Source of the DNA: Folioceros fuciformis
Lineage: Eukaryota
Assembly (NCBI GenBank): GCA_049999805.1
Contig: JBNGIO010006373.1
Coordinates: 278,735-298,734 of the forward strand
DNA length: 20,000 nt
Reading direction: 5' to 3'
The position numbers and the translations under genes are program-made. The notes beneath the pieces are model-generated. The model searched no databases. It was not told the DNA's origin and saw nothing but the letters and a program-made list of their open reading frames with translations. This document shows positions 1 through 20,000 of this stretch, piece by piece (position 1 is the first letter of the stretch; each line of letters starts with the position of its first letter).

Positions 1-6
1 AAGTAC

Positions 7-3000
7 CAATTGCTTGTCAAAAATGGTGACAGTGAGTAACATTGAGAATGCCCTCAAAGCAGCCAGCTGTGCATCACCCAATGCAGCCATTTCATTAGCG
101 TGCCTCATGGAGCGCAATGTATTCTCTGCCTCAGATGGTGGCAGAACTTGGGGGCCGTCCGATTGGGGCCACCACTCATACCCCAACTCACTCTCTAAAG
201 CGAAGGTATTGTACAGAAAGCTGTCCCCATATGCAGGATATAAATATGCCATTCGTTGCTCTGAATTCGGGTTCAGTAAAATATCAAACTCATTGTTCCT
301 CAAATAATCTGCAATCTGTCGGAATGGCCCTGCTGGTATTGGTCGTCTCACAAGGTCACCTTGAAGGTGATGATACAGGTCACTCATGAGCATAGTTTGC
401 AGTTGCTCACCATAGCTGAGAACAAACAATAGAGGAACTTCAGTGATGGACAGAAGCTCCCGACATTTTCCTTTCTGAACTTCAAATGTTTAGCAATGTA
501 AGTAAAAACCTGTTGAAGGACAATACCTATATCCTCGAGCAGAATACTGGCCTAAAAGTTCAACAAAAGGGGGAAGCTGGAAGACCTATGAGAAACAACA
601 CGAACTTATGTCAGATCCTTGAAAACTGTCAACAAGCCTTCAGAACATGTTCAGCCAAGTAACGCATACCTGCATCGCTGCCTGTCTTATCCTCCCAGCC
701 AGGGAGGAACTTAGTCCCCTGTCAGTACCAGATAGAATTTTACTCATTAATCCCACAACCATGACTCTTGTATCATCCTGCATACAGCAGAAAACAAGTA
801 GCACACACCCCTGATTGTTAGCACAGGCAAGTCACGTGGACAGGACGTCACTAAATAGGCAACAAGGGCCAGTACATCCCGACAGCATATAATGAGCGAG
901 TTTTAGTACCTTAGCATGTTGGATAGCATCTTTATCAAACAAAGTACCCGAATAGACATGCAACATGTTTCTGGTCTCCAAAAGGCCACGCCATTGTTTA
1001 ATAACATCCACAGCACCAGACTCCTTGCTGACAAAGGGTTTATTGTTGGTCTTGTTCTTCTCCTGACTCTCATCGGCCGTTTTTTCACTTTTGGAATCAG
1101 CGAGATACAGAAGGTGCTGCTGTAAGAAAATATCGTGCGCCAAAAGGTTAAATACAGTAGCCTCACACCGATAAAGGTGAGCATAGGAGAATGTTTCCTG
1201 GTTACTCATGCAGGCCCTAAAGGGCTCCCCGGAATCTATTCCGACAATGAGGTTGGACAAGGGTGTGTTTGAGCAACTGGACGAAACACAGCCAGCCAGA
1301 ATCTTCCAGAATCCTTCACGAGTCCTAAGATTCTCTATCACATGGAAATACTCCATGCCACCTTGCCAAAATGAGGCCATCAAGTGGAGTACATGGGCTA
1401 ATATCTTGGGGCGGCTGCAAGCACGCAGAGTATCCAGGCTATTAACCGCAACAAAAGCACCATGATAACAAACATCAAAATGCAGACTAATGCGACATAC
1501 CTATGTAACAGAGTCGCAGCTTTCGCCAGGTAGCCCCATAGCACATGAAGAACCTCACAATTGTCAAGAGAAAACTGCATATTGGATTTCAGATCCCTTT
1601 GGGAAGACAGCAGGGGTCCTTGCACCCCAGCAGAACCTGATCTGTCCTTCGAAGGCTCTGAAGGGAAGATCAAGAACTCCACCAGTGCAGGCTGAACAAG
1701 TGGAATTATAAGTGAAGAACGGTACACTAAATTCCTATCATGAATCGGCTTGCGGGCTGAAAATTCACTTCAAAGATTCTCAACTATGATAAGCGAGGAC
1801 TTCCAGTCATATTCTCAACTACCTCAAATACTGGGTAAAATACCTGAAATCTTATAGCGGTCGCAACCAAATCAGAAACAGCTTCAAACAGTGGATAGTT
1901 AGAGTATGCGTTTTCCTCAGCCAACAATTTGGCAACCATAAACCTAAGCGGTTTCCGCTGCAAAAGACAAACTAGTCATATCAGAAAAGCAGAATATTAT
2001 GTGCTGGTGAAAGGTGAAGATCGGGGGTAATCAAATTGCCAGTTCGACCAAGTAATTGCAAACCTGTTCAGCCAGTATGTAGGTTGCTATACTTATGGGA
2101 TGAGGGCGTGCCATGTGAGACGACATACAGAGGCTAGTCAATGCCTTTGCACTGGCCAATTGAAGGTCCTGTCACCACCATACATGCTAAAGTCAGAGAG
2201 CCCCGAAGATCAGGTCACCAGTTGCTCTAGAAAGGTAATTATTGCTTCTCAATTGCTCACCACATTGCGAGGGAAGTCTAAGTATGACGCTATGACTGCC
2301 ACAACAGGCATCGGACCAGCAGCACGGCGAAAGAGCGTATGCCACAACATCGACAAGCCCGGATGATCCTAGATTCCAAAACAGAACGTTGTTCAAACAT
2401 TCAAACTACAGACTACTAGCAGAAGATAGCTGCTCCATGACAGTTCAAATAGCGAGACTAGAACAAAATAAATGATCTTCACCTTGGACCTACAAGTAGA
2501 TAGCTATTTGCAGACAATCCAAGGATCACTGCGACCATACCTTAGAAGCTCGGCTGATCGTGATATTCAGAAAAACTTGGTGAATCAGCATCAATACCAT
2601 GCGAATAGCGTGTTGAAGACACTCCAGTTCTTTAGGGCGAACAGAGCGGTTGAAATGAAGGTCCTGAAAACATGACACAACCAAAAGATGATGAAAAGTG
2701 TACAACCTCAGATGCACATTACTTGAGGACAAAGTAGTGAGTAGCACCTCAAGGACTGGTGCGCCGATAGAAAGCACTTGCAGAAGGACATCATGAATCA
2801 TCACGTCATATAGTATTGAATCTAAAACACTGAATTCAAACTTTTGAAACTCTGGACGCCAAATAATCCCTGACAAAATATTATGAACCATCTGAAATGC
2901 CTGCACCACATCAAATCAATAAGCAGACGGCACTCAGAGAACTATTCCATGTTGCAGAATCTGAAAGTGCCAACCATCACAGCCGACAGAAAGTAAAATG

Positions 3001-6000
3001 GGAACCTTGGTAGTTATCTGCCACCGCTCATGTCTCTGTTGATACCTCCAATTGCCATGATTCACTAGGAGGTTGCGTACGACATTCATGACCAGCGAAG
3101 CAAGTGACTCTGAAAGTACTCCCCTTTCAAGTAATACGATACTCAAGTCTAGCACTGCAGAAATAGTTGGAGAAAATGTCAGACCCGAAAGTTGAAAGAT
3201 GCAAACCATAATGCCCTGGCACTACAAAGACGCACCGGCCAAAGTGAAAGGGTAACGCCCCACAGTCTGTTCTGTTCTCAGCAGTAAAACCTGCAAAAGG
3301 GTGCCCCCAATCACTGGCCCCCCAACACTGCAAGAGGCACAGACTATCAGGTTACAACAGGCTCCAGAACAGAACCATCTCAACAGCAAGGTCTACAGCA
3401 AAACATACGCGCCTGAGACTAATTTTGGTCCCAGAAGGCTGCAACAAACTAGTCCTGCTGACCTCCATTGCAACTTGGGCAGCACAACTGCAAGCAATTG
3501 ATGGCAGCACCGGTCAAGGAAAGTAAATAGCCTGCTTAGCAGGCTGCATGTGGCCAGCAAACACAGAAAGCATTAAAATCACCAACGGAATGCACAGGTT
3601 TTACCAAAGGCAAAATGATGAGAGGATCCGAAGGCAGGACGCAATTAACAGATCATCTCCAGAATTTTGCACAAGGTTGCTAATTACAGAGCAGATGATG
3701 CCCACAACATCAATCCTGTAGCCACGTAAATGCAATGTCATTAACCCCTACAGCAGTAGTCACACCAATCCAATCGCGGAGATGACTAGACAAACCATTT
3801 GATGCTGACTGAAATTTACCGGAGGTAGCTCTCCATAACCCCTTTTTCACGGCACGTTGCAGCAGCAATGGAATTGTCTAGCTCCAAAAGCAGATGTGCC
3901 AGCCCCTACATTCACAAGCTCCATATTCAACAACTTTGTACCAATTTCACAGACGGTTCTGTGATTGAAATATTCCACTGTGAGCAGGAATTACCTTATT
4001 TGAAGAAAGCATTTTGCTCAGTAGTTTCAAACTAGCCTCCACTTCTTGAAGGTCCTCAATATTTGCAGATCGGTGCAGCATCCTTAGAAGAAGGAGAACC
4101 ATGCCACTGTGACAGCACTGCAAGGGACATGCACTGATGCTCAGAAGTTCCAGGGATATTGTCACACTCAGCTCCATCGCCTTGCTATAGGGAAGTCTAA
4201 TCAGAACCCCAGGGTACCATTCAGCAACAGTGCAGCGTTTCCACATGATAGACCCTTACCTCCCACCGAACAAGACATAAACCAGAAGACGTGTCCCGCA
4301 ACACACGCCCTGAGCTACCAGCCGGAATAAGCAATCCTGGAGCATCTGGAAATTGTAAAGCTGTGGGAGTTTGAACAATATCTTCAACCGTGACACCGTC
4401 TTTCACGAGCGAACCAGGTGGAGGCTGATAGAAACATGTGATATGAACCAACTTGTATAGAAAATCCCACCTGAAGACCAAGACGGCATTCCAACATTGA
4501 AGAACTCTCTGCCAAATGGGCAGAAGTGCAGTTTTTCAAAAGTAACCATTCAGCAAAAGTTGTACATACTTACACACATTCAGCTGGCCAGGTTCCTTCA
4601 CACTGAGCTGCAAGTAGACGAATGAGAGGAACTGATTGGAATGGAAAATACTCTCTGAGAGAGAACAGGAGACTGCGGATGGGCCCATCAATTACACTTT
4701 CACGGTCCCAGAATTCAAGACACAGGGCCTCCTGTAACAATGCATGTTACTTGTCAAAATTTGCTTTTGTGACTTTTCTGGAAAGTAGCAACCAAGCACA
4801 ACAAAAACACTGAAATCAAGAATCTTCACCTGACCCCGATAGACCTCACATAGGATGTCAACCAGGGAATCAAAACCATCAGAATCTACCTGGATGAAAA
4901 ATGTAAGTGCATTAGTACATTCGAAAATTGCACAGAATCTTTGTAGGGCCCAGGACAATCTGCTCTGGAAATCCAACACCAAACAAAACGAGCCAATGTG
5001 ACATGTGACATGCTCAATGTGACACAGCAGCATGACGATATCTACTCACCTGACCAGCAAAATCGTACGCTGCTAGGAGAGCAGCTATCAGGGTTTTCAC
5101 TACATTCTTATATCCACTTCCTTGGTTCTGAAACAAAGCAGCAGCTCGCATAAACTGAGCACAGTGATCAATTCAAACTGTAACCTCACGAACCAGGAAT
5201 TGAAGTACTTAGCTTACATCAGATTCTTGCAATGGCTCGCTCTCCAGAAGTTTCAATAAGAAGTTGTAGCTCCCAGCTCGGTAGGCTTGCCGCACATACT
5301 GCGTGTGGTCTATCTCCTGCAGGACAAATAAGAACACAAAAATAACCTCAACATCTGTATTTGAAGGAGAGCATAACCCACTCATGAGGCATACTACAAC
5401 CGCAACCACATGAGTGATAGTTGTGGACGCGCGGACACAGAAAAATTGGATACTAACTGGAATTGGTGACTGGCCAGCAGTCTCTGGTAAAATGGTCACA
5501 AGACAGATAAAAGTTCCCCATCCCAACAACAGAGGTGCGTAGTCAGGGATGCTAGCAAAGTCCAGGCCCGCCATTATGGAATCCAGCTGCCCAAGATCTT
5601 CAACAGTGATCGAGTGCTCTCCTTGACTGGGAAACATGAAACCAGTATACAAAGTTTTGGTCACGATTAAGAAACTCATGATGAGGGACTGATTGAGCAG
5701 CATGTATCAGATGAAAACATATCTCAGACCTGAATGGAACTTCCCCATGAACCATTGTAAGCAGATTCTCCAGGTCGAGGGCTTCCAGAAGAATGAGGAG
5801 AGCTTGATGTCTCACATGCTTGACTAGCCTTTCTGCTTCCGGGGTGACTGACAACCTCTCCCCAGCAGCAGATTCGAACACGGATTCCTGGCAATGAGGA
5901 AGAACACGTTTTTCAATATCGCTCTACGAACATCAATATGCTTGCATTCTATTTCAAATGTCAGCGAAGGTACCTGAAAGATGGTAAGTAGCCCTTCCAA

Positions 6001-7425
6001 CCGCCTTGCTGCGCAGGTACACAAAGGCTCATAGTACAGTAGGAAAAGGATGTCCAAAAGAAGTGTTTGTTCTAGAGCCATCTCTTCTGCCCAAAGATCA
6101 GCATGCTCCCGCTCCTGGACAAATGTCCATCATGTCACAGAATTATGCCCCGCAACCATCCAGAGCAACTCAATGAGAAAAAATGGAGGTCTACCTGCAT
6201 TTAGTTGCAAGCTAAAGAAAAGTAGTTCGAGGATCTATACCAAATGCTGAGGCTGTGCGGCACAAAGTTGTACTTTCAAAACCTCAATCAATTTCCCTTC
6301 AAGGTCACTTGAGAGAAGTTTCTTCACTTCCTCGTCTATAACGCCACAACAGCTAGACCTCACTCCTTGTTCAGCCACTGCAGTACACGAAAGAGTAATT
6401 CATCGCTTAAGCGACAAAACCAAGACTTCTCAATGCTGTGGAAAAATACCCCAAGAAAACAATCTGCAAAAACTCACTTTGGAAAGCTAGAATAAGTCGA
6501 AGACTTTTCAGAAGACATTGTCTCTCCACAAAGTAGAACATCTCAACCTGCACACACGAACCTGAAGACCTTGAGCATCTCAGGCGTGGACATGCATGAG
6601 ACTGCTACAAATTACTTCTACATAGTAGGAATGGAGTCGGAGAGACAGATACATGCCAGCACTCGGGCAACGGCGACGCCTTACATTATGAAGAAGTTCA
6701 TTGTCCACAATCACAGTTCCATCTGCTGTGGACTCCAAAACCCTGCTGAGCAATAAATACGTCTGTACTTCGTCCAGAACCTGATCAGATCCACCACTCA
6801 TACGAAAACTTAGCCATCAACGCTGGACCACCCCGTTCCCTGAATGCACCCCAAGTTCCATACACACCAGGTGCTTGCTGACTTGCAATGCCACGCCCTT
6901 CCATTCCGGCTTGATTTCCAGCGTGTGGTCCCCGACCGCGATCTGGGCAGAGCTTAATGCTGATTCCGATGTGCTGCTCGGAGGCTTGAACCAAGCGACA
7001 CTGTTGAGAAGCCATTTCTGGTGGGAAGCTAGTTTACTAACCTGCAGGCCACCAAGCAAGCATGACGCTTCTCAATCCCGCGCATACATGTCCGAGAATC
7101 CCACAGATGCACGCACGACTAAATCCCACACAGCGACTATCAACTCAACAGACAGCAGTCATCCCAGAGCCCAGGACATTCCCATTCTCACGGCATAAAT
7201 CGTTAGCTCTGATTCAGGACACGGCACGGCGCGTACCAATGCGTCCAGGACCTCAGACTGTGCCCTGCCAGCTTCTCCAGAGCCCTCGTTTCCAGGTACC
7301 CCAGAGCTCTGCGAGGCTCCAATTTTGTCCAGAACGTGGAAGAGCGATTCGAAGGAATCCCACCAAAGGTCAGCATCTACTTTGAGCGTAGCCGCCTGCT
7401 CAATTGCTCTTGCAACGCTAGCCAT
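7..7425 (-). CDS. NUP188: Nucleoporin NUP188 homologue, multi-exon, 3' end outside the window (29 exons, ~1417 aa visible)
   Basis: ATG at 7425. Manual splicing gives one open, phase-consistent frame. Exons (minus strand): 7425-7237, 7041-6868, 6780-6685, 6547-6478, 6377-6241, 6114-5974, 5887-5730, 5626-5458, 5316-5218, 5127-5050, 4889-4830, 4731-4574, 4470-4260, 4117-3995, 3905-3820, 3715-3605, 3487-3413, 3327-3236, 3154-3006, 2900-2748, 2663-2541, 2368-2261, 2168-2064, 1957-1844, 1691-1501, 1414-910, 777-670, 585-527, 415-7. All introns are GT-AG except one candidate GC-AG. Peptides VDADLWWDSFESL, WFKPPS, LDEVQTYLL, ERQCLLK, LWAEE..LLDILFLLY, FWDRESVIDGPIR, EGTWPAECV, EQTVGRYPFT and SDLYHHLQG match plant NUP188 as recalled from the Arabidopsis protein; no database search was run. 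Confidence 0.92.
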
Positions 7426-8290
7426 AGAGTGACGCCCGATGCACACAGACGTGCTACACCCCCGACGAGCGAGTAAATTTAATCCACAACTCTAGCAGCA
7501 GGCCAGAATTTGGTGCTCAGCAAGTGCCATGTAATGCGGCCTTGCCAAAGGAAAGGTTGCCTGGAGCCAAGCGATGAATCTCCTCACCTTGACGACCTGT
7601 ACCAGATTCAGATTCAGATTCAGCTGCGGTGGATAGTTGAGCAACTCTCCGGGGATTTTTTTTAATGGACAAGATGAGGCAGCGGTGTCGTGCGCACACG
7701 ATCCGAGCGCTAGACCAGTCCACCATTACCTTGTCCTACTGCGCGTGCCTGACTCAGCCAAGCAATTCGCGAAAGACGGAAGGCGGGAAACGGACCTGTT
7801 GGCCCTAGTCTTGCCCTAACTCGGACATCTTCTCGAATACATTTCAAGTTCACCAGCGCGATATTGAATAAGTTAGTACTGGCCACTGACATTGTTCGAC
7901 TTCGTCCATTGTTGTCTTGCGATCCAGGACTTACAAACGGAACGGGAGCTGGCCCTCACAGGTGTGAAAGACTGTATGCAACGCGGCCAAGGATGCTAGG
8001 ACAAGCAACCCAAGGATACTTGTCTGTCCTAATTACAGCGCAGGACATGAGCGTCGTTGTTACACTTAGGGGCTGGATTCAGCCACTGTCACGGTGGCAG
8101 GTCGGTCCTAGCACGTGTGCTCCAGCCGGTCGTTCCATGACGGGCCGCACAGTTTCACACATCAAGTGGAGCAATGGTTTCACCATCATGATGATGTGGT
8201 TATTTATTTATATTATTCAATATAATAATGTGTACAATATTATCATTATTAGATAATTTAATAGCAGATATTGAAAGCATACCTTATCTC

Positions 8291-8474
8291 ATGGCTTCCT
8301 CCATCGCTTCACTCCCTCTTCCATGGCTTCACGCTTCTTCCATTGCTTCACTCCCTCCTTCCATGGCTTCACGCTTCTTCCATAGCTTCACTCCCTCGTG
8401 GCTTCTTCCATCGCTTCACTCCCTCGTCGCTTCTTCCATCGCTTCACTCCCTCGTGGCTTCTTCCATCGCTTCA
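8291..8474. repeat. Tandem array, ~6 copies of a 28-bp CT-rich core (tggcttcttccatcgcttcactccctcg), first copies extended
   Basis: Units are directly visible head-to-tail. They explain the repetitive ORFs in three frames (ASSIASLP / LLPSLHSL). Confidence 0.9.
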
Positions 8475-8781
8475 TTTTGTCGGCGTGCCATTGCACTACC
8501 ACATTCCCTTGGCCGTGGCGTACCTAGGCATTATGATTGCAATGGAATCTACATACATGTGCCTCTTGCAAGCAATCATGTTGGGTGTCCTTCAATGTAG
8601 CCATTGAAGCAACTGACTCATCATCATTGGCATTGATGTTGGGTTATCGAGCGTTGTTTAACAATTGCAATTGCAAGTTCAAGACAAGACAGTCGGGTTC
8701 TATGATTACTAGAAGTATATATATAGACATATGCTATATACTAGAAGCCCATCATTCTTTGATTAACAACTCATGGGCTCG

Positions 8782-8819
8782 TACAATGATACAATGTTCA
8801 TACAATGATACAATGTTCA
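8782..8819. repeat. Perfect tandem duplication of 19 bp (tacaatgatacaatgttca x2)
   Basis: 8782-8800 and 8801-8819 are identical. Confidence 0.9.
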
Positions 8820-8821
8820 AG

Positions 8822-9000
8822 AGAAGAATGCGTATTTTGAAAACCATATTCCACGCAGAGGAATGCGTGTTTTGAAAGCCATATTCCACGCAGAAGAATG
8901 CGTGTTTTGAAAGCCATATTTCACGCAGAAGAATGCGTGTTTTGAAAGCCATATTCCACGCAGAAGAATGCGTATTTTTAAAGCCATATATATTCCACGC
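8822..9000. repeat. Minisatellite, 5 copies of a 35-bp unit (agaagaatgcgtgttttgaaagccatattccacgc)
   Basis: Units start at 8822, 8857, 8892, 8927 and 8962; the last has a 4-bp insertion. There are no spacers. Confidence 0.93.
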
Positions 9001-9726
9001 TATTTGTGCCAACCTCCTCTATGCTCACAACTTAATGCTCACAACTCAAGATACTTCATTTGGGCCACTTAAACATAAAGTTGTTATGTCCTTACTTAAG
9101 CTTGCAGCTTGCAGGTAATTAAGGATCTCTTTGGATACAGAACATCTACTGTATATGTATGTGTATGTGTTCACCAATTTTGTGCAGTTTTTTTGTAGAC
9201 CTTACATAATACCTATATTTCATGGCTGTCGATGGCTCATATGCAAATTTTGTGTAGAAATTTGTCTGGAAATCATCTGGAAATTTTGATGTCATTCTTA
9301 GAACGAAAGCTTTGTTTCTGCCACGAGAAGGTATGGATTTATGGACAGAAGAATTTTCCTATCATCTAAGTTGGCGACAAGGACACGGGATGAGCTTGGC
9401 AACAATCCCACTTAAGTTGCAGTTGGAGGAAGATGAACAAGATGCATATATAGTGAACATGGCAACTTCTTTGGAAGGACAGGATAAAGAGGATGATGAA
9501 GATAAGTTGTGGGTTTTCATTATATGCAAAAATTGTGTATTAAAGAATGCACTGGCGTCAATTTGGAGGAGGATTCAATGAGAACAGATGTTACTAGAAC
9601 ATTAGCTGGAAGTTTTAGATAACATGAAAAATCACATTCTGAGTTTCAGCAAGATAATAAGATTCAACCTTATACAAAGTAGGCAGTTAGTAAACTCAAA
9701 TCTGTGTGTAATTATGAAAAGGGACT

Positions 9727-10324
9727 TGTCGTGCTGTGCCACTAAACATCACACTCACACATGGTTCATTAGTTAACAATACTCACACCACACCACATTT
9801 TACACACATTAAACATTGCATGATTGTGCTGTAGTTCTATAAGAGTGAAGCATTTGCTTCCTTCAGACACCACAAAATCTCCTCCACCTGCATCCACACT
9901 TCTCAAAGCTGTAACTTGGCTTCTCAAATCCTCGATAGGGTTACATGATCTTGCACACTGCGGACATACACACCTCAACCAGATTTCCAACAAGAGAATG
10001 CTCCCTCAAGAGAAAGCCTATTCCCAGAAAGCAAGAAAATACAAGCTTATAGCTGCAGCGAACACCACTAATTTAGACTTTATATTATATTGTATTTTCT
10101 AATCATCTTCACTAAATAATTGTTAATTACCACTAATGTCATTCATTAGCATCACTTAATTATTAACTAATTACTATTTGCATGCATCTAAGCGATAGCA
10201 CACAATCATGCTTGGCAGCTGTCGTGTTGTGTCGCTAAACATCGCACTCATGCATGGTTCATTAGTTAACAATATTTACACCACACCATATTACACACAC
10301 ATTAAACACTGCATGATGGTGCTG
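9727..10324. repeat. Two diverged 105-bp direct repeats (9727-9831 and 10220-10324), LTR-derived
   Basis: Both begin tgtcgtg, share atggttcattagttaacaata...caccacacca...acacacattaaaca.tgcatgat.gtgctg, and are colinear with scattered substitutions. Confidence 0.85.
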
Positions 10325-10326
10325 CA
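9830..10326 (-). repeat. Candidate 3' LTR (~497 bp) of the gypsy element
   Basis: On the minus strand it starts TGCAG immediately after the purine tract and ends ...CTACA at 9830, giving TG..CA with near-inverted termini. There is an internal ctataag TATA-like motif near 10050. No second copy is present in the window to confirm it. Confidence 0.5.
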
Positions 10327-10341
10327 ACTTTATCCCCCCTT
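10327..10341 (-). other. Polypurine tract (PPT) of the gypsy element
   Basis: Minus strand reads AAGGGGGGATAAAGT followed directly by TG, ~110 bp downstream of the pol stop at 10453. Confidence 0.7.
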
Positions 10342-10452
10342 GCTGGTTAGTACTTCACGAACACATATATGTTGCAGCACTGCTACAACATACTAAGAAT
10401 TCAAACATACAGATAACTCCTGAACACAACATCAATCATCCATCAACTTGTA

Positions 10453-10750
10453 TCACCTATTAATGAAGATTAAGTTGTTGGCGCATGACTTTGGCAACTT
10501 CGTACAATTTGGGCAAAACCAATCTTCTTGTGGTACTTCTTCCAAAGCTGGCTATAGACAAAACAGGTAATACCCTTAATTGCAATGATCACACAAGAGC
10601 ATGGTATCTTCTTCATCAGTGCGACCACAAATGCGGCATTCCAAGTCCTTGGGTGGTATCCAAGTGCTAGGTCGTAGCTCTAGATCCAAATCTGGCAAAT
10701 GACATGGAGCTAGGTTCTTCAAATGATCTTGCTAACTTTGTCCATCAGAT
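10453..10750 (-). pseudogene. Integrase C-terminal tail plus PHD zinc finger (finger at 10638-10504)
   Basis: Manual translation: DHLKNLAPCHLPDLDLELRPSTWIPPKDLECRICGRTDEEDTMLLCDHCN*GYYLFCL*PALEEVPQEDWFCPNC. This has C4HC3 PHD spacing with the conserved LLCD and W-x-C-x-x-C. The His ligand is mutated to Tyr (TAC) and there are two in-frame stops, so it is absent from the ORF track. Confidence 0.88.
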
Positions 10751-10751
10751 G

Positions 10752-11594
10752 AACTCGAAAATGCATCACTACCCACACAAGTGCTAAACACTCTCATTCA
10801 TAAGAACAATAGTTCGCCTGTGCTGCGTTCATACTGCGACTAGCATAAGCAATAGGGTGCTCTTCTCCATCCCCAAAAACTTGTGCTAGCACTACACCTA
10901 ATCCAAGCTTGCTGCAGTCAGTATACAACAAAAATTCCCTTGTAAAGTCTGGTCTCCATAAAACTGGACTGTTGCATAGCATGTTTTTCACCTCTAGTAA
11001 TGCCAACTCTTGTTCATGTCCCCAACACCATTCTTCAACAATAGTGTCAATGGCTTCACAATTGAACTCATGTTAGGTATGTACCTTCGATAATAACTTA
11101 CAAGTCCAAGAAATGTTCGCAACTTGGAAATGTCAGTTAGCCTAGGCAATTTTATAATGGCCTCCACTTTGGGCATGTAAGGTGAAATGCCCTCTGGAGT
11201 AATCTCACGTCCCAGGTACAACACCTTGTTGTACACAAATGTACACTTACGAGGATGACATTTAAGCCCCCATTCCTTCAACCTAGCAAGACTTTTTCAA
11301 ACACATGAATTTGCTCTTCAAAAGTCTTGGTGAAGATAATGATGTCATCCACATAACACCTTGCCTCAGGCACGTCTGCCAATGCACCATCATCATTCTC
11401 TTGAAACACCACAACAGAATTCTGTAGCCCAAATGGCATCCTTAGCCATTCATATAATGAATCTCTTCCCTAGAATGCCGCCTTGCACCAATCCTCCTCC
11501 ATGATGTCAATTTGGTTTGCCTAAGATCCAATGTGGAGAAGTAGCAAGCACTTCCAATGTCATCAAAGATTTCATAAGGAGTAGGCATTGGATA
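10752..11594 (-). pseudogene. Gypsy reverse transcriptase and partial RNase H
   Basis: YPMPTPYEIFDDIGSACYFSTLDL, MPFGLQN, CYVDDIIIF (YVDD at 11355-11344), KCTF..KVLYLG, LRTFLGLVSYYRRYIPN, PDFTREFLLYTDCSKLGLGVVLAQ and PIAYASRSM..AQANY. Several frameshifts and stops. Confidence 0.95.
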
Positions 11595-12405
11595 CCCATG
11601 CAATTTTCCAATCTCCCTCCAGACCCCTTACACATACTCATACTGAAAAAGTAGGGGCTAACTTTTGTTTGGCGCACCCACAGAACACAACCTGCAGAAT
11701 TTCTCCTTAGCAGCGATAAGCAAACCATCCCATCGATCCGTTGTAGGCAACCAAGCTTGAAAAAAGCACCATACCATAGCCTGACCTTTGGAGGGACACA
11801 CACTATTGTCCAAAGGAGATGGAGAGCGCATCGTTGCCAATAAACGAGTAACCCCATCCTAGGAGCCATCAATTCATGCTTATGGCTCCTCTACATCTTA
11901 ATCAGCTAATGATAGACATCTGCAGTACAAACATTAAAGAAGGAGGTAGAACCCTCATGGCAACCATTAGGGCATTTGGGCCAGCTATAAAGGTCAAGTC
12001 ACAAGGTGAGCTCCCAATTCTCTACAAGACAAAACTAGCACCGCCTCCTTGAGTTGAGTTCCAAGTGATGTCCCATGGCAACTCGTCCTCTGTTAACCAT
12101 CTATCCACTCGAGTAGAGCGGGATAGGACCATAAGAGGCCGTAGAGACCACTTGCTAATCACTCCTTCTTCTCTTCCATGTCCTTTTAAAAGAGCATTGG
12201 GTGAGGTCACTCTAAAGGACAAGGTAGCTCCCTAATTACCCGGGCTAGCAATGAAGGTTGCTCGGTCAAACTCCGGAAGGGTGCAATCCTCATCTAAGTC
12301 CTCATCCTCTAACTTGTCCTCTAGCGCATAGGCTCCACAAGTGTCTGCTTCCACCTCTGCTGGTATCATCAGAGCCTGTCTAGCACCCTCGTCCATGCCA
12401 CTCTA

Positions 12406-13296
12406 CAGCCATCGGAAAATGACTCTAAGATGGTGAGCAGGAATGCCAAATTCTTCCTTTAATTCTCGCTCCCGTGCATTTGGCTCTTCTAAATCATCTC
12501 CTTTGGAACTCATCACTCTCCCTGGTGAGTCAGCATATCCAAAAGCATAAGAGCCACTTGCACTTACAAAGGTTGGTTATGCTACCCTTGGTTTTAACAC
12601 TTCATTCACGGCAAAGTACGGCATACTTTCACGCTTCATGACTTCTTGAGGATGCTTGTCTCCGAACATGATGCCTTTCACTTGCACCATTTTTGGCACT
12701 GTGATATCCCTGCATGCCATCAATGCTTCTCTAAGCATCATGTTGTTCCATATGCACCTTAGTCGATGTGCACGTGACCCAAACTGCACAGCATGAAGAT
12801 ATACTTCCATGCCCACTACTCCTTTGATTTGTTTGAAGCTATCCTTCACAATTTGCCTCTTGTCAAACATTGCCAAAACGTTCTCAAGAATGTACCCACA
12901 TGACTCTTGCTGATATTGTTCAACCAACCTAATAATCCTTGTCGGCTCAAAGAATAGCATTGACCTTAGATCCAACAATCCGCTTCCTGCTCCTGCCAAT
13001 GACATGCCTTGACATTCCCACCCGGCAATGATCAAGTTTACTGACACTCCCAATCCCTAGATTTGCTCCCATCCTATATGCCTTACATCCGCAGGTAGTT
13101 GTTTTTGAAAGTTCCTCATCGCCCCCTTGTCTAATAAATCTGGATAACGATTCAACAGCTCCTACACACGTGCTGTTGCCACAACTTGAGCCTGCACATC
13201 TCTGTCACAATAGACATATTTTCTTATCTTCACACCACTTCACAACATTGCTTCCAGCCGTGAGCGTATGCCACCAAACAACTCCACCAGTGTTAT
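12406..13296 (-). pseudogene. C5-cytosine DNA methyltransferase domain embedded in gypsy pol
   Basis: One frame with in-frame stops. Motif I ITLVELFGGI (13296), motif II YVYCD, motif III LPADVRHI, motif IV LIIAGWECQGMSLAG (Cys 13014-13012), motif V GLLDLRSMLFFE, motif VI YILENV (12885), motif VIII QFGSRAHRLRCIW and motif IX-like EEPNARERE. Motif X is not clearly recognisable. Confidence 0.9.
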
Positions 13297-13581
13297 CCCT
13301 TTATCGGTGACATTCCACTTAATGATTCTTTGGTCCACTGAATGGTTGCTAGCAATCACACTTTGGTCTTGGCAGTATGATTGCGGTTGATACTCCACAT
13401 GCTCAACATCCTTTTGTTTGTACAGCATTAGCCTTCTCATTGCTTTCTGAAATGCAGGCCTACCTTGGATTTGTAAAGGTGCTATTGTTTGCCTTTATTG
13501 CTCCATTGCCGCCTCCACCAATAAACTCTCAAATGTAGCTTCTTCGACACTGTCTTCTTCTAGGTTGTACATTAATGCCAC

Positions 13582-13989
13582 TTACTCCCTCAGCTCCACA
13601 CTTGTTGTATGCACCTGATACACCGTGTGAGTCATCATTGCCGCCTGTTTCGGGTGCAACAATGACAATGGCACCAGTGCCAATGTTCCTACACCTTCTT
13701 CCCACTTTGGATAGAAGAACATTTGTTCTGTCCAATTGTCAACTCCTCCCCCGGGCAGGTACAATGCTTCACACCCTAACAAAAAATCGTAACCGGCCAC
13801 ATCAGTAGCCAAACAAGTTACCTTAATGAATGTAGCATTATCTATCCTCAACTTTAATGCTATGTTCAGCGGTTTGGCCGTCTCTCCTAACACAGACTTG
13901 GTCGTGCCAGCTACCGTATGTATGTAGTTAGAAGTACAGACCGCGTTGGTTATGGGTAACTTAGCTAGTGTGGTCATACCCTTTGGTAT
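13582..13989 (-). pseudogene. C-terminal part of retropepsin-like aspartic protease of gypsy pol
   Basis: IHTVAGTTKSVLG flap-like segment and YDFLLGCEAL (D-x-x-LG motif), in the same frame as the downstream DNMT. The catalytic D-S/T-G is lost at the junction near 13990. Confidence 0.7.
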
Positions 13990-14107
13990 TTAGTACCGAA
14001 GAGGTACAACTCTTCAGACACAAGCTATAAAAGCCCACCTCTTGTAATCAATTTTATCAATTAGTAAAGCACTATGTTTTGATCAAACGCTTCTGCAAAG
14101 CACGACA
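13990..14107 (+). repeat. 3' part of the copia 5' LTR
   Basis: Contains TATA-like ctataaaag (~14026-14034) and ends ...GCACGACA four bases before the PBS. The TG start is not present at the left junction. Confidence 0.65.
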
Positions 14108-14111
14108 AACT

Positions 14112-14123
14112 TGGTATCAGAGC
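14112..14123 (+). other. Primer binding site complementary to initiator tRNA-Met (TGGTATCAGAGC)
   Basis: Exact canonical plant LTR-retrotransposon PBS just after a CA terminus and upstream of gag. Confidence 0.92.
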
Positions 14124-15467
14124 ACAAGTTTGATTACTAAGTTCATCATGCATTATGATGTGAATCTAAATGTTCTTCTAATATGCAACGTCTTTCTTAT
14201 GCCTTTGGTATTTGTAATATGGAGCTATTTTATACTTATTCATAGTTTCTCTTATATTCAACCAAACATGTTTTTTTCTAATAAAATAGTTTGGCTTCTT
14301 CTATGATTAACTTTTATATTCATTAAAGTTTCATGTCTAATTACCACTCTCATTCTTCAATCTTATTCTTCCAAAACCTAAATCTCAATAGATTCAGCAA
14401 GTCAATCTTTCTCATTCCTCACATTTGCTACAACACGAAAAGCTTGCTATCAGAAGAAAGTTGATCATGTCTCAACACAGGAGATTCCACCAGGTAGGGC
14501 ACCCTCTTTTGGCGCCACTTTTGATCCCGAGATTTCGAAGGATTTGACGCTGGAGGTTTCTGGTCGTTCAGTGGTGGTTCTGGACGGCGCCGGTTTAGAT
14601 CTCTTACCAGAAAGGTTGCCTGGGCTGGATGCCCCTTCTGCATCTTGCGCACTTCAGATTGAAGGAGTTTTGGCCTAGATCGGTGGAGGTGAAATTGCAG
14701 GGGGGATCCGGCAGTTATGCGCATGTCCAACTTGCTGAGCAGCAAAACGGTTCCCCAACTGCCAACTTAAATCGAGTTTCTTATCGGGGGGCATTTCTGA
14801 CCCACCCAATGAAACTCAGTTGCAGTTTCTTTCACAAGGGTATGAAATGGTTCCCCCGTTTCTTACGGCGTTTCTGTCCTTTGATATCTTATTTTCCCGG
14901 CTTCCGAACAGACTTGGGGTATCTGATGGGGCCCACCTGGTGTGTTCCTCTGGATCTCCTGGCATACCTTTACAGCCCTCACCTGCAACTATTCAGTGCT
15001 CCTCGCCTCCTTATACGCAGCCTCTGGCGGTGGAGTGTCTAGTTTTTCCAGCTTTAGTCATCAAGCAAGAGCCCTTATCGCCGCACTTTCAACGTGACAA
15101 CCTTTGCCACTCAGCGTTACCTTTATCAGCAAGCTAGTGCTACTCCTCAAGAGCTATTTCAACTGGAGTGTCGTCATCTCCGTGATTATCTTAATCAGCT
15201 CTCTGAGTCGGTGCACTCAGTTGCCCAAGCAGTTCAACATCTTTCTACTGTTTATGGCCCTAGTAATCGTGGCATCGTTCACTAGGTTGCTTGACTTTCT
15301 GGACTTTTATTCGTATACCATTTGAGTTGATCCTCTTCAAGATTTGATATATCAATATATATATATTTGAAGACTACTTGGCTTCTCGTCATAACTTGAA
15401 GTTAGCAGAGTCCTTCTTGTATTTCTTTTCTGCTTCTATCTAATCACTATTGTTTGCTTCTATCACG

Positions 15468-18400
15468 ATGGCTTCCTCATCAAACACGCCCCCTACTCCT
15501 ATCATCAATTATGTGAATGTGACTTCTGAATTCAAAGAGAAAGACCGTTTTGACGGCACTAAGTTCGAGATATGGTCCAAACGTATGCGTTCTGTCTTGA
15601 ATACTAGAGATCTACTTGGCATAGTTGATGGATCTATTACCAAACCTAATGGGCCTTCACCTGCCCACAACTCTTGGTTGAAACAAGACAAGCTAGCTAT
15701 GCATATCCTTATCTCGGGCCTCGATGAAGTCACTCTTCATCATCTTGATGGTGCTACTACTGCTGCTGAGGCTTGGTGGCAGCTAGTCGATATTTTTCAA
15801 TCTACCAATGTTATGACATTAGTAACAGCGCGCAACGAATTTTATTCTCTCCGCATGAATAATAATGAGAGCATTGGTACTTATGTTGGCAAGTTTCATT
15901 ATCTTCGGGCCCAGCTTGCTGCCTTAGGCACTCCCTTATCGGAATTCGAAGCTTGTGTCCAACTGCTGGCCTCCTTTCCTGCCAGCTTTCAAGCATTTGT
16001 GTCCTCTCAGAATGGCACTGTTCGAGAGGCTCATCAGGCGATAAAGGCTGGCCGCACACCCAACATTTCCATCTCCGAAATTGCCGGCGCTCTCCTTCAA
16101 GAGGAGGCTTCCAAATACAACGACGGCACTTCAAAGCATGGTGGTGAACGAGTTATGTTCATTAGCAAAGGCCGTCAATGCCACCAGCTCCACCAGCGAC
16201 GTCGTCCTCCTCCACCTGATAGGTGGCCCTTCACTGCGCCTTCTCCGGCTCCTGGTCGTGAACCTTCGGCATCCAAACCTACTAGTTCCGGCCGCAAGCC
16301 CGGTACCTACAACTGGTGTCAAATTCCAGGCCACTGGGAGCCTGATTGTCGCAAGAAGAAAGCTGGCGAGCCTCGACGTCCATCCAAGACTGCCAATACG
16401 GCCTCGACCTCCAAGCAGAAACAGGCCGACATTGCCCTCACAATCTGCTTGGCAGCTTTTGAGTATAAGACCTCTTGGCTAATGGATTCCGCTGCCTCCG
16501 CGCATATATGCTGCCATCGTCATATGTTTTCTTATTATCTCCCTGCCAAAGATCAACGTTTTGTTCTTCTCAGCGACGACTCTGGCCTTACTATTGCGGG
16601 CACTGGCACTATTACTTTTACTCTTGAAGATGGTTATGTGTTTCTTCTAAGTGATCTGCTGCATGTTCCGCAAATGGCGAAGAATCTTATTTCTGTTCGA
16701 CACTTGGTGAAGGACAGTACATTCCGGCTAGAATTTGGAAGAGGCGATTGCCTCCTCACAAGATCTGTTGCTCCTGGTCGCGTGGTTGCCAGAGGTCGTC
16801 CGCGACATGATCTCTATGTCTTCTCCACCGTACGAGTGATCACGGCTTCCTCGACCCCAGCTTCCGCCATGGCAACTGCGGTTGACAAAGGGAGTTCTCG
16901 CAAAGGCGACTCCCTATTATGGCATTCTTGGCTTGGACATATTAATCATGCTAAGCTTCTCGAGATGTCTAAGCAGGATTTAGGGATAAGCTACCTCACT
17001 TTTCACAGACTCCACTATTATGTGAACCTTGTATATATGCTAAACAGCGTAGCTTCCCCCATCCTACTCTCCTTGCCCGTCATGCTACTCAGCCCTTGGA
17101 GTTGGTCCATGTTGATCTTTGTGGTCCACTTCCCGTCCTTTCACTTGGCGGCGCACTGCATTTTATGACTATTGTTGACGACTATAGTCGCTATACCTTT
17201 GCTATTCCACTCAAGTCGAAGAGTGACTCCTTCGGCTCCTTTGCTCCTTTTGTCACTATGGCCGAGCTGCAAACCGTTTGCAAGCTTCGGTGTATTAGAT
17301 TTGACAATGCAGGGGCATTAAATAACCGGCAATGTAAGAATTTTTGTCTTGAGAGGGGGATTCTCCGTCAATTTACGGTTCCCTACACTTCCCAGCAGAG
17401 TGGGGTTGTTGAAAAGGCCAACGGCGATTTGCTCGCCATGGCCCACGCTATGCTAGCCTGTGCTCAGCTCCCCAAACCCTTTTGGGCCGAAGCGATAAAT
17501 ACTGCAGTGTATCTCCGCAGCAGGGTACTTTCCAAGTCCGTTCCTGACCAGACACCCTTTGAGTCATGGCATGGATATAAGCGTCTTACTACTCATCTTC
17601 GGATTTTTGGCTACCCCGTCTATGCTAATATTCCTTCTTAGCTTCTCGACAAGCTTTCTGCTCGTGCTCGCAAGCTGGTATTTGTTGGCTATGGCGAGGA
17701 TTGTAAGGCTTATAAACTGGTTGACTTGGATACCCATGCTATTGTATATGCTCGCACTGTCACTTCTGATGAGGCTTGGTTAGCATTTGCTCGTTCTGAG
17801 TCCATGGATTCTACTTCGGCTCCTTCAGACGACACGGCTTCTTCCGACCCAGGTGACCTTATGCCTGAGTTTTTGACTCAGCCCTCTGTTTTCCCGGACT
17901 TTGGTCTTGCACCCACTGCTCCATCCTTGGCCTCTTCACCTCAAGCAGCACCTATCCCTATTGTTCCTGCTCGAGAGGGGGAAGATGAACACACCATTGT
18001 TGATCCTTATGAAAACAGAGAAGACTTTGGTGCTCTTAATCCACAAGACCCAGAGACTGTTCCTGCTCCACCTTGTCCTGTAATACTTGATCCAGCCCTT
18101 GAGCAAAGATATCCTTTGCGTCATCATCAACCGAGACACCTTTGGAATGAGATCCGCTTTGATTTAGAGTTCAATCAAGCTGCCTACACCACCACTGCTG
18201 CAGGTCACTTCAACGCCTTTAGTGTTGCCCCTTAAGAGGGAGATCCTCTCACTCTGCAAGAGGCATATTCGCAGCCCGATGCAGCTAAGTGGAAGTTCGC
18301 TATTGATGATGAATATAATTCTCTTATCAAAAATAATACTTGGACTCTAGTAAACTTGCCGAAAGGCAGAACTACTGTCAAATGCAAGTGGGTTCTCAAA

Positions 18401-19754
18401 ACTAAATTCCAAGAGGTTGAACCTCATATTCGCTACAAGGCGAGACTAGTGGCTAAGGGTTATACATAGAAAGAAGGAGTGGACTATCGGGGCGATAAGG
18501 TTTATTCACCTATAGTCAAGGCTGCTTCCGTGAGAATGCTCCTGGCTTTATGTGACGAGCTTAATCTGGAAATTTATCAGCTTGATGTTTTTACTACTTT
18601 CCTTTATGGTCATCTGCAAGAAGAGATCTATATGGATCAACCAGAAGACTACGAAGATAAGCAATATCCAAATAAGGTGTGTAAACTTATTCGTTCTATT
18701 TACGGACGAAAGCAAAGCCCACGTTTATGGTATGAGAGAATGGACTCTTACCTTAAGAAGATCGGTTTTATCCAAAGTGAAGCATACACCAATATCTATG
18801 TACTCCGCAAGGACAGCTCCTTTGTACTGGTTGCTCTTTATGTTGATGAATTAGTTATTCCTGGCAACAATATTGAACTAGTTAACAAGATTAAAGATGA
18901 CGTTAATAAAGAATTCGAGATAAGATTAAAGCAGACTTTCGTAAAGAATTCGAGATGAAGGATCTCGGCAAATTTAAATATATTCTTGGTATGCATGTAC
19001 ATAGAGATACCACTGGTGCTATCTATCTCCATCAAGGAAGATATGTAGTTGGTAAGTTAAAACGCTTCAATTTGGAGAATGCACGTGCGGCAGCCACACC
19101 TGGCGCCGTAGGTGTTAAGCTTTCATTTGCTACGTGTCCATAATCAGAACAGGAAAAGAAAGAGATGGAAAATATTCCTTATCGTATGGGAGTTGGTACT
19201 CTCATGTTCTTAAGTAATCAGACTAGACTTAATATCTCAAATATTGTAAATGCTATTGCTCAGTTCTCAGAGAATCCAAGAAAGGATCACAGGGTTGCTC
19301 TTACGTGCATCATGCGGTACCTCAAGGGTACGCCAAATTATGGCCTCTGCTTCAAGCCTAGCGGAAAGAAGCATATGCTGCTGACATGCTTTGTTGATGC
19401 AGATTGGGCTTCAGATGCAGACACCCGAAAAAGTATCTCAACATATTGCTTTCTTGTTGGCTCCACTGTTGTTAATTGGTCTTGTTGAAAACAAGCTGCA
19501 ATATCACTTTTGTCAACGGAATCGGAGTACAAAGCACTCACTGAAGCCACGAAAGAAGTTGAATGGGAAAGAAAGCTATGTGAAGATTTAGATATGAAGC
19601 AGGAAGGACCAACAATTCTTAACTGTGACAATATGTCAGCCATTGGTCTTGTCGCTAATCATGTCTTTCATGCGCGCGCGAAGCATATTGAGATTCAACA
19701 CCATTATATTCATGACGTTGCTCAGAGGGGAATTTTTAAGGTACAGAATGTACC
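15468..19754 (+). pseudogene. Copia gag-pol polyprotein with frameshifts and premature stops
   Basis: Gag: RFDGTKFEIWSKRM and degenerate zinc knuckle YNWCQIPGHWEPDC. Protease: WLMDSAASAH. Pre-integrase: LWHSWLGH. Frameshift near 16990. Integrase: LVHVDLCGP, IVDDYSRY, RFDNAG, QQSGVVEK. RT: CKWV, RYKARLVAKGY, LDVFTTFLYG, LYVDEL. RNase H: FVDADWASD, STESEY, CDNMSAI, KHIEIQHH. Stops include 17639, 18233, 19141 and 19486. Confidence 0.95.
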
Positions 19755-20000
19755 TGTGGGGTTAAAATATGGTAATCGGGGGTACCGCGAGGTCCACACA
19801 AGCCCTCTATGTTGTTGTAGCTCTGGGATTCGATCCCAAGGGAATGATTTGTGTTAAACTACACAGGTTAGCTTCTAAAGTCAATTAACACCTAAAGCTC
19901 GACTGACCCACACACACACGTCCAGTGCTCGGACCTTACCAAGCCCCCATACTTCTCACACCAGACGACCCCTCGACCCACCGGTCGCCCTAGGGACTAC
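19755..20000. mobile_element. Probable terminus of another LTR element inserted into the copia RNase H
   Basis: Copia homology stops after KVQNVP, before the expected ADxxTK motif, exactly where TGTGGGGTTAAAAT begins. The following sequence looks non-coding. Confidence 0.55.

Follow-up and report, generated by a model that had tools for sequence, protein, structure and literature searches.

A decayed Ty3/gypsy retrotransposon with a DNMT3-like methyltransferase domain in pol, a probable deep branch of the streptophyte Gypsy-DNMT3 lineage

The 20,000-nucleotide (nt) stretch of contig JBNGIO010006373.1 analyzed here, referred to below as the window, includes the minus-strand remains of a Ty3/gypsy retrotransposon with a DNMT3-like C5-cytosine DNA methyltransferase (MT) domain in pol. 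A frame of 656 codons (P0001; 12022..13989, minus strand) holds part of a protease, a linker, and the methyltransferase. It is interrupted by nine in-frame stops (at window positions 13584, 13497, 13242, 13164, 13059, 12579, 12405, 12234, and 12024) and by no frameshifts; translation confirms an earlier note on this DNA, which had described a frame without frameshifts from 13989 to about 12022.

The methyltransferase domain itself occupies 12439..13359 (minus strand), with motifs I to IX in the normal order. LFGG (reading LFGGI) is at 13281–13270, ADVR at 13092–13081, GWECQ at 13023–13009, LENV at 12888–12877, RAHRLR at 12774–12757, and ARERE at 12477–12463; all the motifs that the earlier note had listed as an ordered series were located. 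Three of these correspond to motifs I (F-x-G-x-G, binding S-adenosylmethionine, SAM), VI (E-N-V), and VIII (R-x-R); they too are in normal order, and the same columns are conserved among relatives. At motif IV the catalytic cysteine is kept, preceded by glutamate instead of the canonical proline. Four stops fall within the core of the domain and one further stop is at 12405, and the segment past motif IX is shorter than in relatives. Comparison of the translation with Pfam, a check proposed in the earlier note, gave a match to DNA_methylase (PF00145) above the curated cut-off (27.3 bits against 22, E = 3.1e-6, amino acids (aa) 294–406 of the frame). In a single-sequence search of solved structures, DNMT3C was the best match.

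Upstream of the methyltransferase, 13759..13935 (minus strand) corresponds to the C-terminal ~60% of an aspartic protease, with 51 bits to positions 40–98 of a 99-position profile built from relatives. This profile did not pick up the N-terminal part of the protease, where the active site would be; with only positions 40–98 detectable, that half is either gone from the window or decayed. The N-terminal 110 residues of the frame align to the protease region of related proteins with the same domain order (“type 2” below), where Pfam assigns gag-asp_proteas or Asp_protease_2, and tblastn with one of these, P0160, covers 13893–13666. Downstream of the methyltransferase, and all on the minus strand, are a reverse transcriptase (RT; 11197..11627) spread over three frames, found by tblastn with P0160, P0165, and P0166 (E = 4.5e-54 over linked pieces); an RNase H of Ty3/gypsy type (10737..11036; RT_RNaseH_2 98.4 bits, RT_RNaseH 75 bits; 50% identity to P0160 over 100 columns by tblastn); and a short segment leading into a PHD finger (10501..10725; Pfam PF00628, 37.3 bits), alike by tblastn to residues 1461–1534 of P0006 (47%) and to P0024 (43%). 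In intact relatives the PHD segment comes after the integrase. The end of RNase H and the start of PHD are 87 nt apart in the window, as against 1530 nt, with the integrase between, in a metagenome relative (L001), so about 1.4 kilobases (kb) including the integrase have been lost, at a junction placed by this spacing at 10725..10737 (minus strand). The three plus-strand frames of 7001–14200 gave no Pfam match. From protease to RNase H, the window is collinear by tblastn with the type-2 proteins P0160, P0092, P0165, and P0166 (over the methyltransferase domain, 32.5% identity to P0160 in 323 columns), and a metagenome relative, P0004, aligns in a single frame over 13983–12271 (606 columns, 30% identity, E = 1e-56). 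These collinear relatives support the earlier description of a Ty3/gypsy-type element with a C5-methyltransferase in pol that shares a frame with the protease and precedes the reverse transcriptase.

A phmmer search of 1.84 billion representative proteins with the methyltransferase domain of the window returned 860 matches at E ≤ 1e-3; of these, 374 reach ≤ 1e-10 and 44 reach ≤ 1e-30, with a best E of 7.6e-41 at 38–41% identity; judged by sequence, the similarity is far beyond chance. Domain order was typed, using profiles seeded from four Pfam-annotated relatives, for 158 proteins: the window frame, 150 of the 860 matches, and seven cluster members. Retroelement domains were found in 106 of these, 52 are methyltransferase-only pieces, and two have no methyltransferase. 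Two orders are represented. In type 1 (83 of 158) the methyltransferase comes after RNase H (protease-RT-RNase H-MT-integrase-PHD); this is borne out by Pfam in P0006 and in P0024, a “pol” protein of Scenedesmus. In type 2 (21 of 158, the window frame included) it follows the protease or precedes the reverse transcriptase. An example is P0092, a single 2188-aa protein with the Pfam order zf-CCHC, protease, DNA_methylase, RVT_1, RNase H, integrase. Type-2 proteins with a named source come from Klebsormidium nitens (GAQ93235.1), Closterium NIES-53, -54, -65, and -68, and Mesostigma viride; all 10 of the looked-up named hosts of this architecture belong to these three genera of streptophyte algae. 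Gypsy-DNMT3 elements, as they will be called here, form a far larger family than has been described: the set compared comprises 860 representative clusters and both domain orders, with a PHD finger behind the integrase. Neither type 1 nor this PHD finger was found described in the literature searched.

A scan of metagenomes for relatives yielded 50 loci, in six of which (L001, L003, L008, L017, L022, and L031) protease, MT, RT, RNase H, integrase, and PHD follow one another on one strand. Open frames run across the domain junctions in L001 (1369 aa, gag-protease-MT) and L036 (1795 aa, MT to PHD). Direct terminal repeats of 342 base pairs (bp; 92% identical) in L031 and 307 bp (94%) in L006, about 8.7 kb apart from start to start, identify these two as long terminal repeat (LTR) elements of about 9 kb. 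Many of the other loci are decayed copies with stops. None is close to the window: protein identity is at most 39%, and at the nucleotide level blastn found no match between the window and any of the 50. One of them, L011 (10136-12427, plus strand), has only protease, MT, and PHD, with RT, RNase H, and integrase missing; internal deletions that spare the PHD end therefore recur among Gypsy-DNMT3 elements. The contigs of the decayed type-2 copies L010, L011, L017, L019, L026, L027, and L031 have a guanine plus cytosine (GC) content of 35–42% over 13–20 kb, which is probably lower than in the named algal hosts, whose genomes are GC-rich.

The two orders are also separated in trees of the methyltransferase domain. 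In a quick maximum-likelihood tree (150 rows, LG+G4), a branch with SH-aLRT support of 99 divides 115 rows (all 83 of type 1 and 32 untyped) from 35 rows (all 25 of type 2 and 10 untyped), the window among the latter. A more careful tree of 56 rows, from which type-2 loci with a frameshift-split methyltransferase were left out, supports the type-2 side at 98/94. The window is thus on the same side of this branch as the Klebsormidium DNMT-gypsy elements, in agreement with the kinship that the earlier note had supposed. The trees comprise typed and untyped relatives, without host DNMT3 or DRM, and the origin of the domain is outside their scope. L036 (3566-8038, plus strand, GC 64%) has the type-2 order, with MT, RT, RNase H, integrase, and PHD in its single frame. 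In the tree its methyltransferase sits on a long branch with weak affinity to type 1, which could point to a third arrangement or be a long-branch artefact. As to the kind of methyltransferase, a profile of seven type-2 domains scored 64–74 bits against DNMT3A, B, and C in the PDB (DNMT3A best, E = 7.6e-20), 39 bits against M.HhaI, and 34–42 bits against DRM, where the match covers query positions 10–138 only. The domain is therefore Dnmt3-like and non-rearranged.

Conservation across the family is strong at the catalytic positions. The motif IV cysteine and the glutamate of ENV are each present in 24 of 24 type-2 and 83 of 83 type-1 relatives, and the two arginines of RxR in 23–24 of 24 and 82–83 of 83. 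Together with the F-x-G of the SAM-binding motif, preserved over about 107 relatives, this has the appearance of an enzyme under constraint.

Further copies were seen in sequencing runs. Two DNA runs of one sample (X1 and X2) contain the window stretch, with 0.81 and 0.65 of sampled words, and 535 contigs of X1 and 506 of X2 matched 10000–14200 at ≥80% likeness. By likeness, the X1 contigs are divided into 92 at ≥99%, 111 at 95–99%, 187 at 90–95%, and 145 below 90%; summed depths of such contigs are not copy numbers. Divergence reaches into the methyltransferase: at position 13135 five X1 and seven X2 contigs have another letter, one X2 contig (record 14) has 28 other letters and 11 gaps over 12963–13259, and one from X1 (record 5), extending over 11959–12459 into the linker after the methyltransferase, has 86 other letters. 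The methyltransferase segment is, from these diverged contigs, part of an old multi-copy family in this genome. In a third run, X3, contigs differ from window 10000–14200 mostly by G>A (237 places, compared to 67 of C>T), where X1 and X2 are without such change; X3 resembles a bisulfite-type library made from that sample. A run guessed to be RNA (X4) had four contigs matching the window, all partial and all less than 95% alike.

We consider the window element to be a member of the published streptophyte “Gypsy-DNMT3” lineage, first described as KnitGypsy-Dnmt3, with a probability of roughly 85%; to this lineage it adds a new, deep branch. Several observations weigh against this reading, or against a functional enzyme within it. 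The best identity of the window methyltransferase to any relative is only 41–42%, and within the type-2 side the window has no settled position, on a long branch of 1.08. Pfam RVT_1 scores 27.8 bits in one frame and stays under its cut-off of 29.6 in every single frame; neither rve nor Integrase_H2C2 was matched on either strand of 7001–14200; and a search of the window for LTR pairs or terminal repeats of the element found none. Because X1–X3 may come from the source sample of the window itself, the additional copies cannot be counted as independent of its genome. At motif IV, glutamate rather than proline precedes the cysteine in the window, in 17 of 24 type-2 relatives, and in 51 of 83 of type 1, with proline elsewhere; being so widespread, GWECQ is a family trait and not a product of decay. 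Finally, the KnitGypsy-Dnmt3 domain produced no detectable methylation in yeast, a result its authors call inconclusive (de Mendoza et al., 2018, PMC5890265).

Other explanations of the arrangement were weighed against these data. Streptophyte hosts have DNMT3 genes of their own, and the uptake of host domains by retrotransposons does occur (PMC5890265), so a gypsy element might have picked up a DNMT3 fragment once, in this genome only. We regard this as very improbable: the same protease-MT-RT order is found in intact open reading frames elsewhere (the 2188 aa of P0092, the 1369 aa of L001), the linker upstream of the methyltransferase aligns as well (P0004 over query residues 3–564), the domain is in the supported clade with retroelement DNMTs, and the sample contains several diverged methyltransferase copies. 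One-off capture of a host DNMT was also the outcome that the earlier note had named as counting against its proposal, and it fails on the order shared with intact relatives and on the side of the tree. Alternatively, the order could be accidental, with a type-1 RNase H-DNMT fragment nested in or in tandem with the reverse transcriptase of another element; in the majority order of the family, seen in 83 typed proteins, the methyltransferase does follow RNase H, and the window is full of nested repeats. However, it is a protease, not RNase H, that precedes the methyltransferase in the same frame, the window is collinear from protease to RNase H with single-frame type-2 proteins, and its methyltransferase is on the type-2 side of the tree, which leaves hardly any room for such an accident. 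A more serious objection concerns function: the domain may not be a DNA methyltransferase in vivo, serving instead as a binding module, acting on RNA or on a cDNA hybrid, or needing host partners, in which case the idea of self-methylation would be mistaken. The lack of observed activity of KnitGypsy-Dnmt3 in yeast and the glutamate found before the catalytic cysteine in most members are in its favor, while the retention of the cysteine, ENV, RxR, and the SAM-binding F-x-G over about 107 relatives speaks against it, as does the de novo CG methylation carried out in yeast by the SymbioDIRS-Dnmt3 domains (PMC5890265). On balance we think this unlikely, if a good deal less so than capture or accident.

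The lineage itself is known from few reports. KnitGypsy-Dnmt3 of K. nitens (GAQ93235.1, P0088 in our set) is described by de Mendoza et al. (2018, PMC5890265) as having, like the window, a non-rearranged, Dnmt3-type methyltransferase in a gypsy Pol reading frame, and a recent preprint (10.64898/2026.05.21.726589) refers to “streptophytes (Gypsy-DNMT3).” P0088 has the order zinc knuckle-protease-methyltransferase, is on the same side of the tree as the window, and is 32.9% identical to it over 307 columns (tblastn). It is a distant relative only: the window is outside the Klebsormidium subclade, and motif IV reads Pro-Cys in Klebsormidium but Glu-Cys in the window. The figure legend for KnitGypsy-Dnmt3 gives DIRS-like repeats (PMC5890265), whereas the metagenome relatives have plain direct LTRs. 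Among type-1 elements, KAF8056149.1 (P0024, Scenedesmus sp. PABB004) shares with the window a homologous methyltransferase (~35%) and a PHD finger after the integrase (43–47%); such elements differ in having the methyltransferase between RNase H and integrase, and are separated from type 2 by the supported branch of the tree. SymbioDIRS-Dnmt3 and SymbioLINE-Dnmt of Symbiodinium, compared by description only, are likewise retrotransposon-encoded cytosine methyltransferases, the DIRS ones Dnmt3-like, but belong to other retrotransposon classes and are presented as independent acquisitions (PMC5890265). The best solved relatives are host DNMT3A, 3B, and 3C domains (PDB 2qrv, 6kda, 8tci), which have a collinear motif order; unlike these, the window domain has no adjacent PWWP or ADD and is embedded in a polyprotein, and at motif IV it has Glu-Cys-Gln compared to Pro-Cys-Asn in DNMT3C.

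From the collinear relatives, the Gag-Pol order of the type-2 Gypsy-DNMT3 lineage is gag (with zinc knuckle)-protease-DNMT3-like MT-RT-RNase H-integrase-PHD finger. In intact members the methyltransferase would be translated within the Gag-Pol polyprotein, and it is probably a working SAM-dependent C5 enzyme; an element of this kind could then package its own methyltransferase, which might act on the element's own cDNA or at the insertion site. Because KnitGypsy-Dnmt3 gave no methylation in yeast, activity, substrate, and timing are matters of inference. The PHD finger behind the integrase may read histone tails for targeting, by analogy to the chromodomain of chromoviruses. In these gypsy elements the chromodomain comes behind the integrase; they have in common with Gypsy-DNMT3 elements a chromatin-reader module at the integrase C-terminus, the reader in the latter being the predicted PHD finger. 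Retrotransposons equipped with the enzyme by which hosts silence them are rare, and bear on how elements may manipulate, or hide within, host chromatin.

The window copy is dead, as the earlier note had concluded: it has stops, a frameshifted reverse transcriptase, no integrase, and a 5′ end cut within the protease. From 11627 to 10501 there are four or more changes of frame, and gag, a detectable protease active site, and LTRs are all lacking. With its 5′ loss, integrase deletion, stops, and frameshifts, no protein is possible from this copy. The 5′ part (LTR, gag, and the active-site half of the protease) was lost at about 13935–14080, beside a copia element that, itself or by its flank, occupies the place where this part would be expected; contigs matched to the window have repeat boundaries at about 13926–14079, and these, with the copia element beyond, fit truncation by later insertions. 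Inspection of 9980–10520 identified no LTR ends, and the 3′ end of the element is undefined. CpG is depleted over the element (observed/expected 0.40, TpG/CpA 1.38), as expected after cytosine methylation and deamination over a long time. Close to the PHD finger, on its 3′ side, is a short repeat of very high copy (10076–10333; summed word depth up to 1287 at 10141–10281) with many joints and loose ends, which may be an LTR remnant of the element or an unrelated small repeat. There is also a pair of 114-nt direct repeats in this area, at 9727–9840 and 10220–10333 (85%).

On either side of the element are a host gene and a second retrotransposon. The gene (1..7491, minus strand) is intron-bearing, is not part of the element, and was recognized by PDB matches of its exons as encoding a Nup188/Nup192-type nucleoporin; it may be NUP188, the name used in the earlier note, rather than another family member. 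Exon 1–489 matches PDB chain 9sob_B, “Nucleoporin (DUF3414)” (1965 residues), at residues 1228–1349 with E = 1.2e-12 and about 38% identity counted by eye; exon 835–1500 matches residues 1018–1147 of the same chain weakly (E = 0.16, 14.6 bits). None of 762 candidate named proteins scored against exon 1–489, and the three minus-strand frames of 1–7200 gave no Pfam match. Protein-atlas matches of the gene, only bacterial look-alikes below 0.9, were disregarded. The second retrotransposon is an unrelated Ty1/copia element (15444..20000, plus strand) that runs off the window and has gag, protease barrel, integrase, and RT (Retrotran_gag_2 94.5, Pol_BBD 71, rve 34.1, and RVT_2 179.5 bits); it includes an SH3-like part, and its reading frames are interrupted from one domain to the next. 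The best relatives of its RT are 40–47% identical over most of the query, with gag-pol matches at only 22–23%. The 16 named RT matches (31–54% identity, often short) comprise 15 from seed plants or ferns and one from a fungus.

These neighbors bear on the question of host, which decides how the element is to be understood. According to one review, land plants such as tracheophytes have no transposon-encoded DNA methylases (PMC6338049), and published reports cover Klebsormidium (“streptophytes”) and dinoflagellates; in the literature searched, which did not extend to the supplementary species lists of PMC5890265 and PMC12344493, no land-plant retrotransposon DNMT was found. If the host is a streptophyte alga, for which we would put the chances at about even, the element falls within the published host range and adds one more species. 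All 10 named type-2 sources are Klebsormidium, Closterium, or Mesostigma, and the 30 proteins looked up include none from a land plant; the similarity of the nucleoporin exons to the plant chain in the PDB is distant (about 38% identity for the best exon, 14.6 bits for the next); and no close named relative was found for the nucleoporin exon or the copia element. On the other hand, 15 of the 16 named copia RT matches are to seed plants or ferns, and the window GC of 38–53% and the short, numerous introns of the nucleoporin gene were counted against an algal host. The charophyte genomes of the named relatives are GC-rich, and the window would probably differ from them in both GC and introns. 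The match to a plant-type nucleoporin chain, moderate GC, and short introns are compatible with a non-seed land plant and also with some algae; we would put a land-plant host at about even odds. That the host is an embryophyte, and that a multi-copy Gypsy-DNMT3 lineage with a DNMT3-type writer and a PHD reader survived into land plants, is accordingly a tentative proposal, to which we give somewhat less than even odds. Horizontal transfer of the lineage into the host, suggested in the earlier note as an alternative to persistence, is unsupported. Placement of the host by the copia RT was set aside, the matches being too distant (≤47% over most of the query), as was placement by the element tree, in which the window is not fixed within type 2.

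Should the host be a land plant, the view in PMC6338049 would be contradicted, and the lineage range and loss scenario would need revision; the low-GC metagenome contigs with decayed type-2 copies would then hint at a wide occurrence in non-seed plants. Should it be an alga, the window adds a further decayed copy to a kind already known.

Among minor features of the window, a search of Rfam gave no matches at the gathering threshold. The nucleoporin region (1–7491) has a CpG observed/expected ratio of 0.51 and TpG/CpA of 1.33, as depleted as the repeats, a hint that gene bodies in the host carry CG methylation. Two tandem arrays are present, one at 8265–8483 with a period of 28 (3.6 copies, 95% matches) and the other at 8822–8996 with a period of 35 (4.8 copies, 93%).

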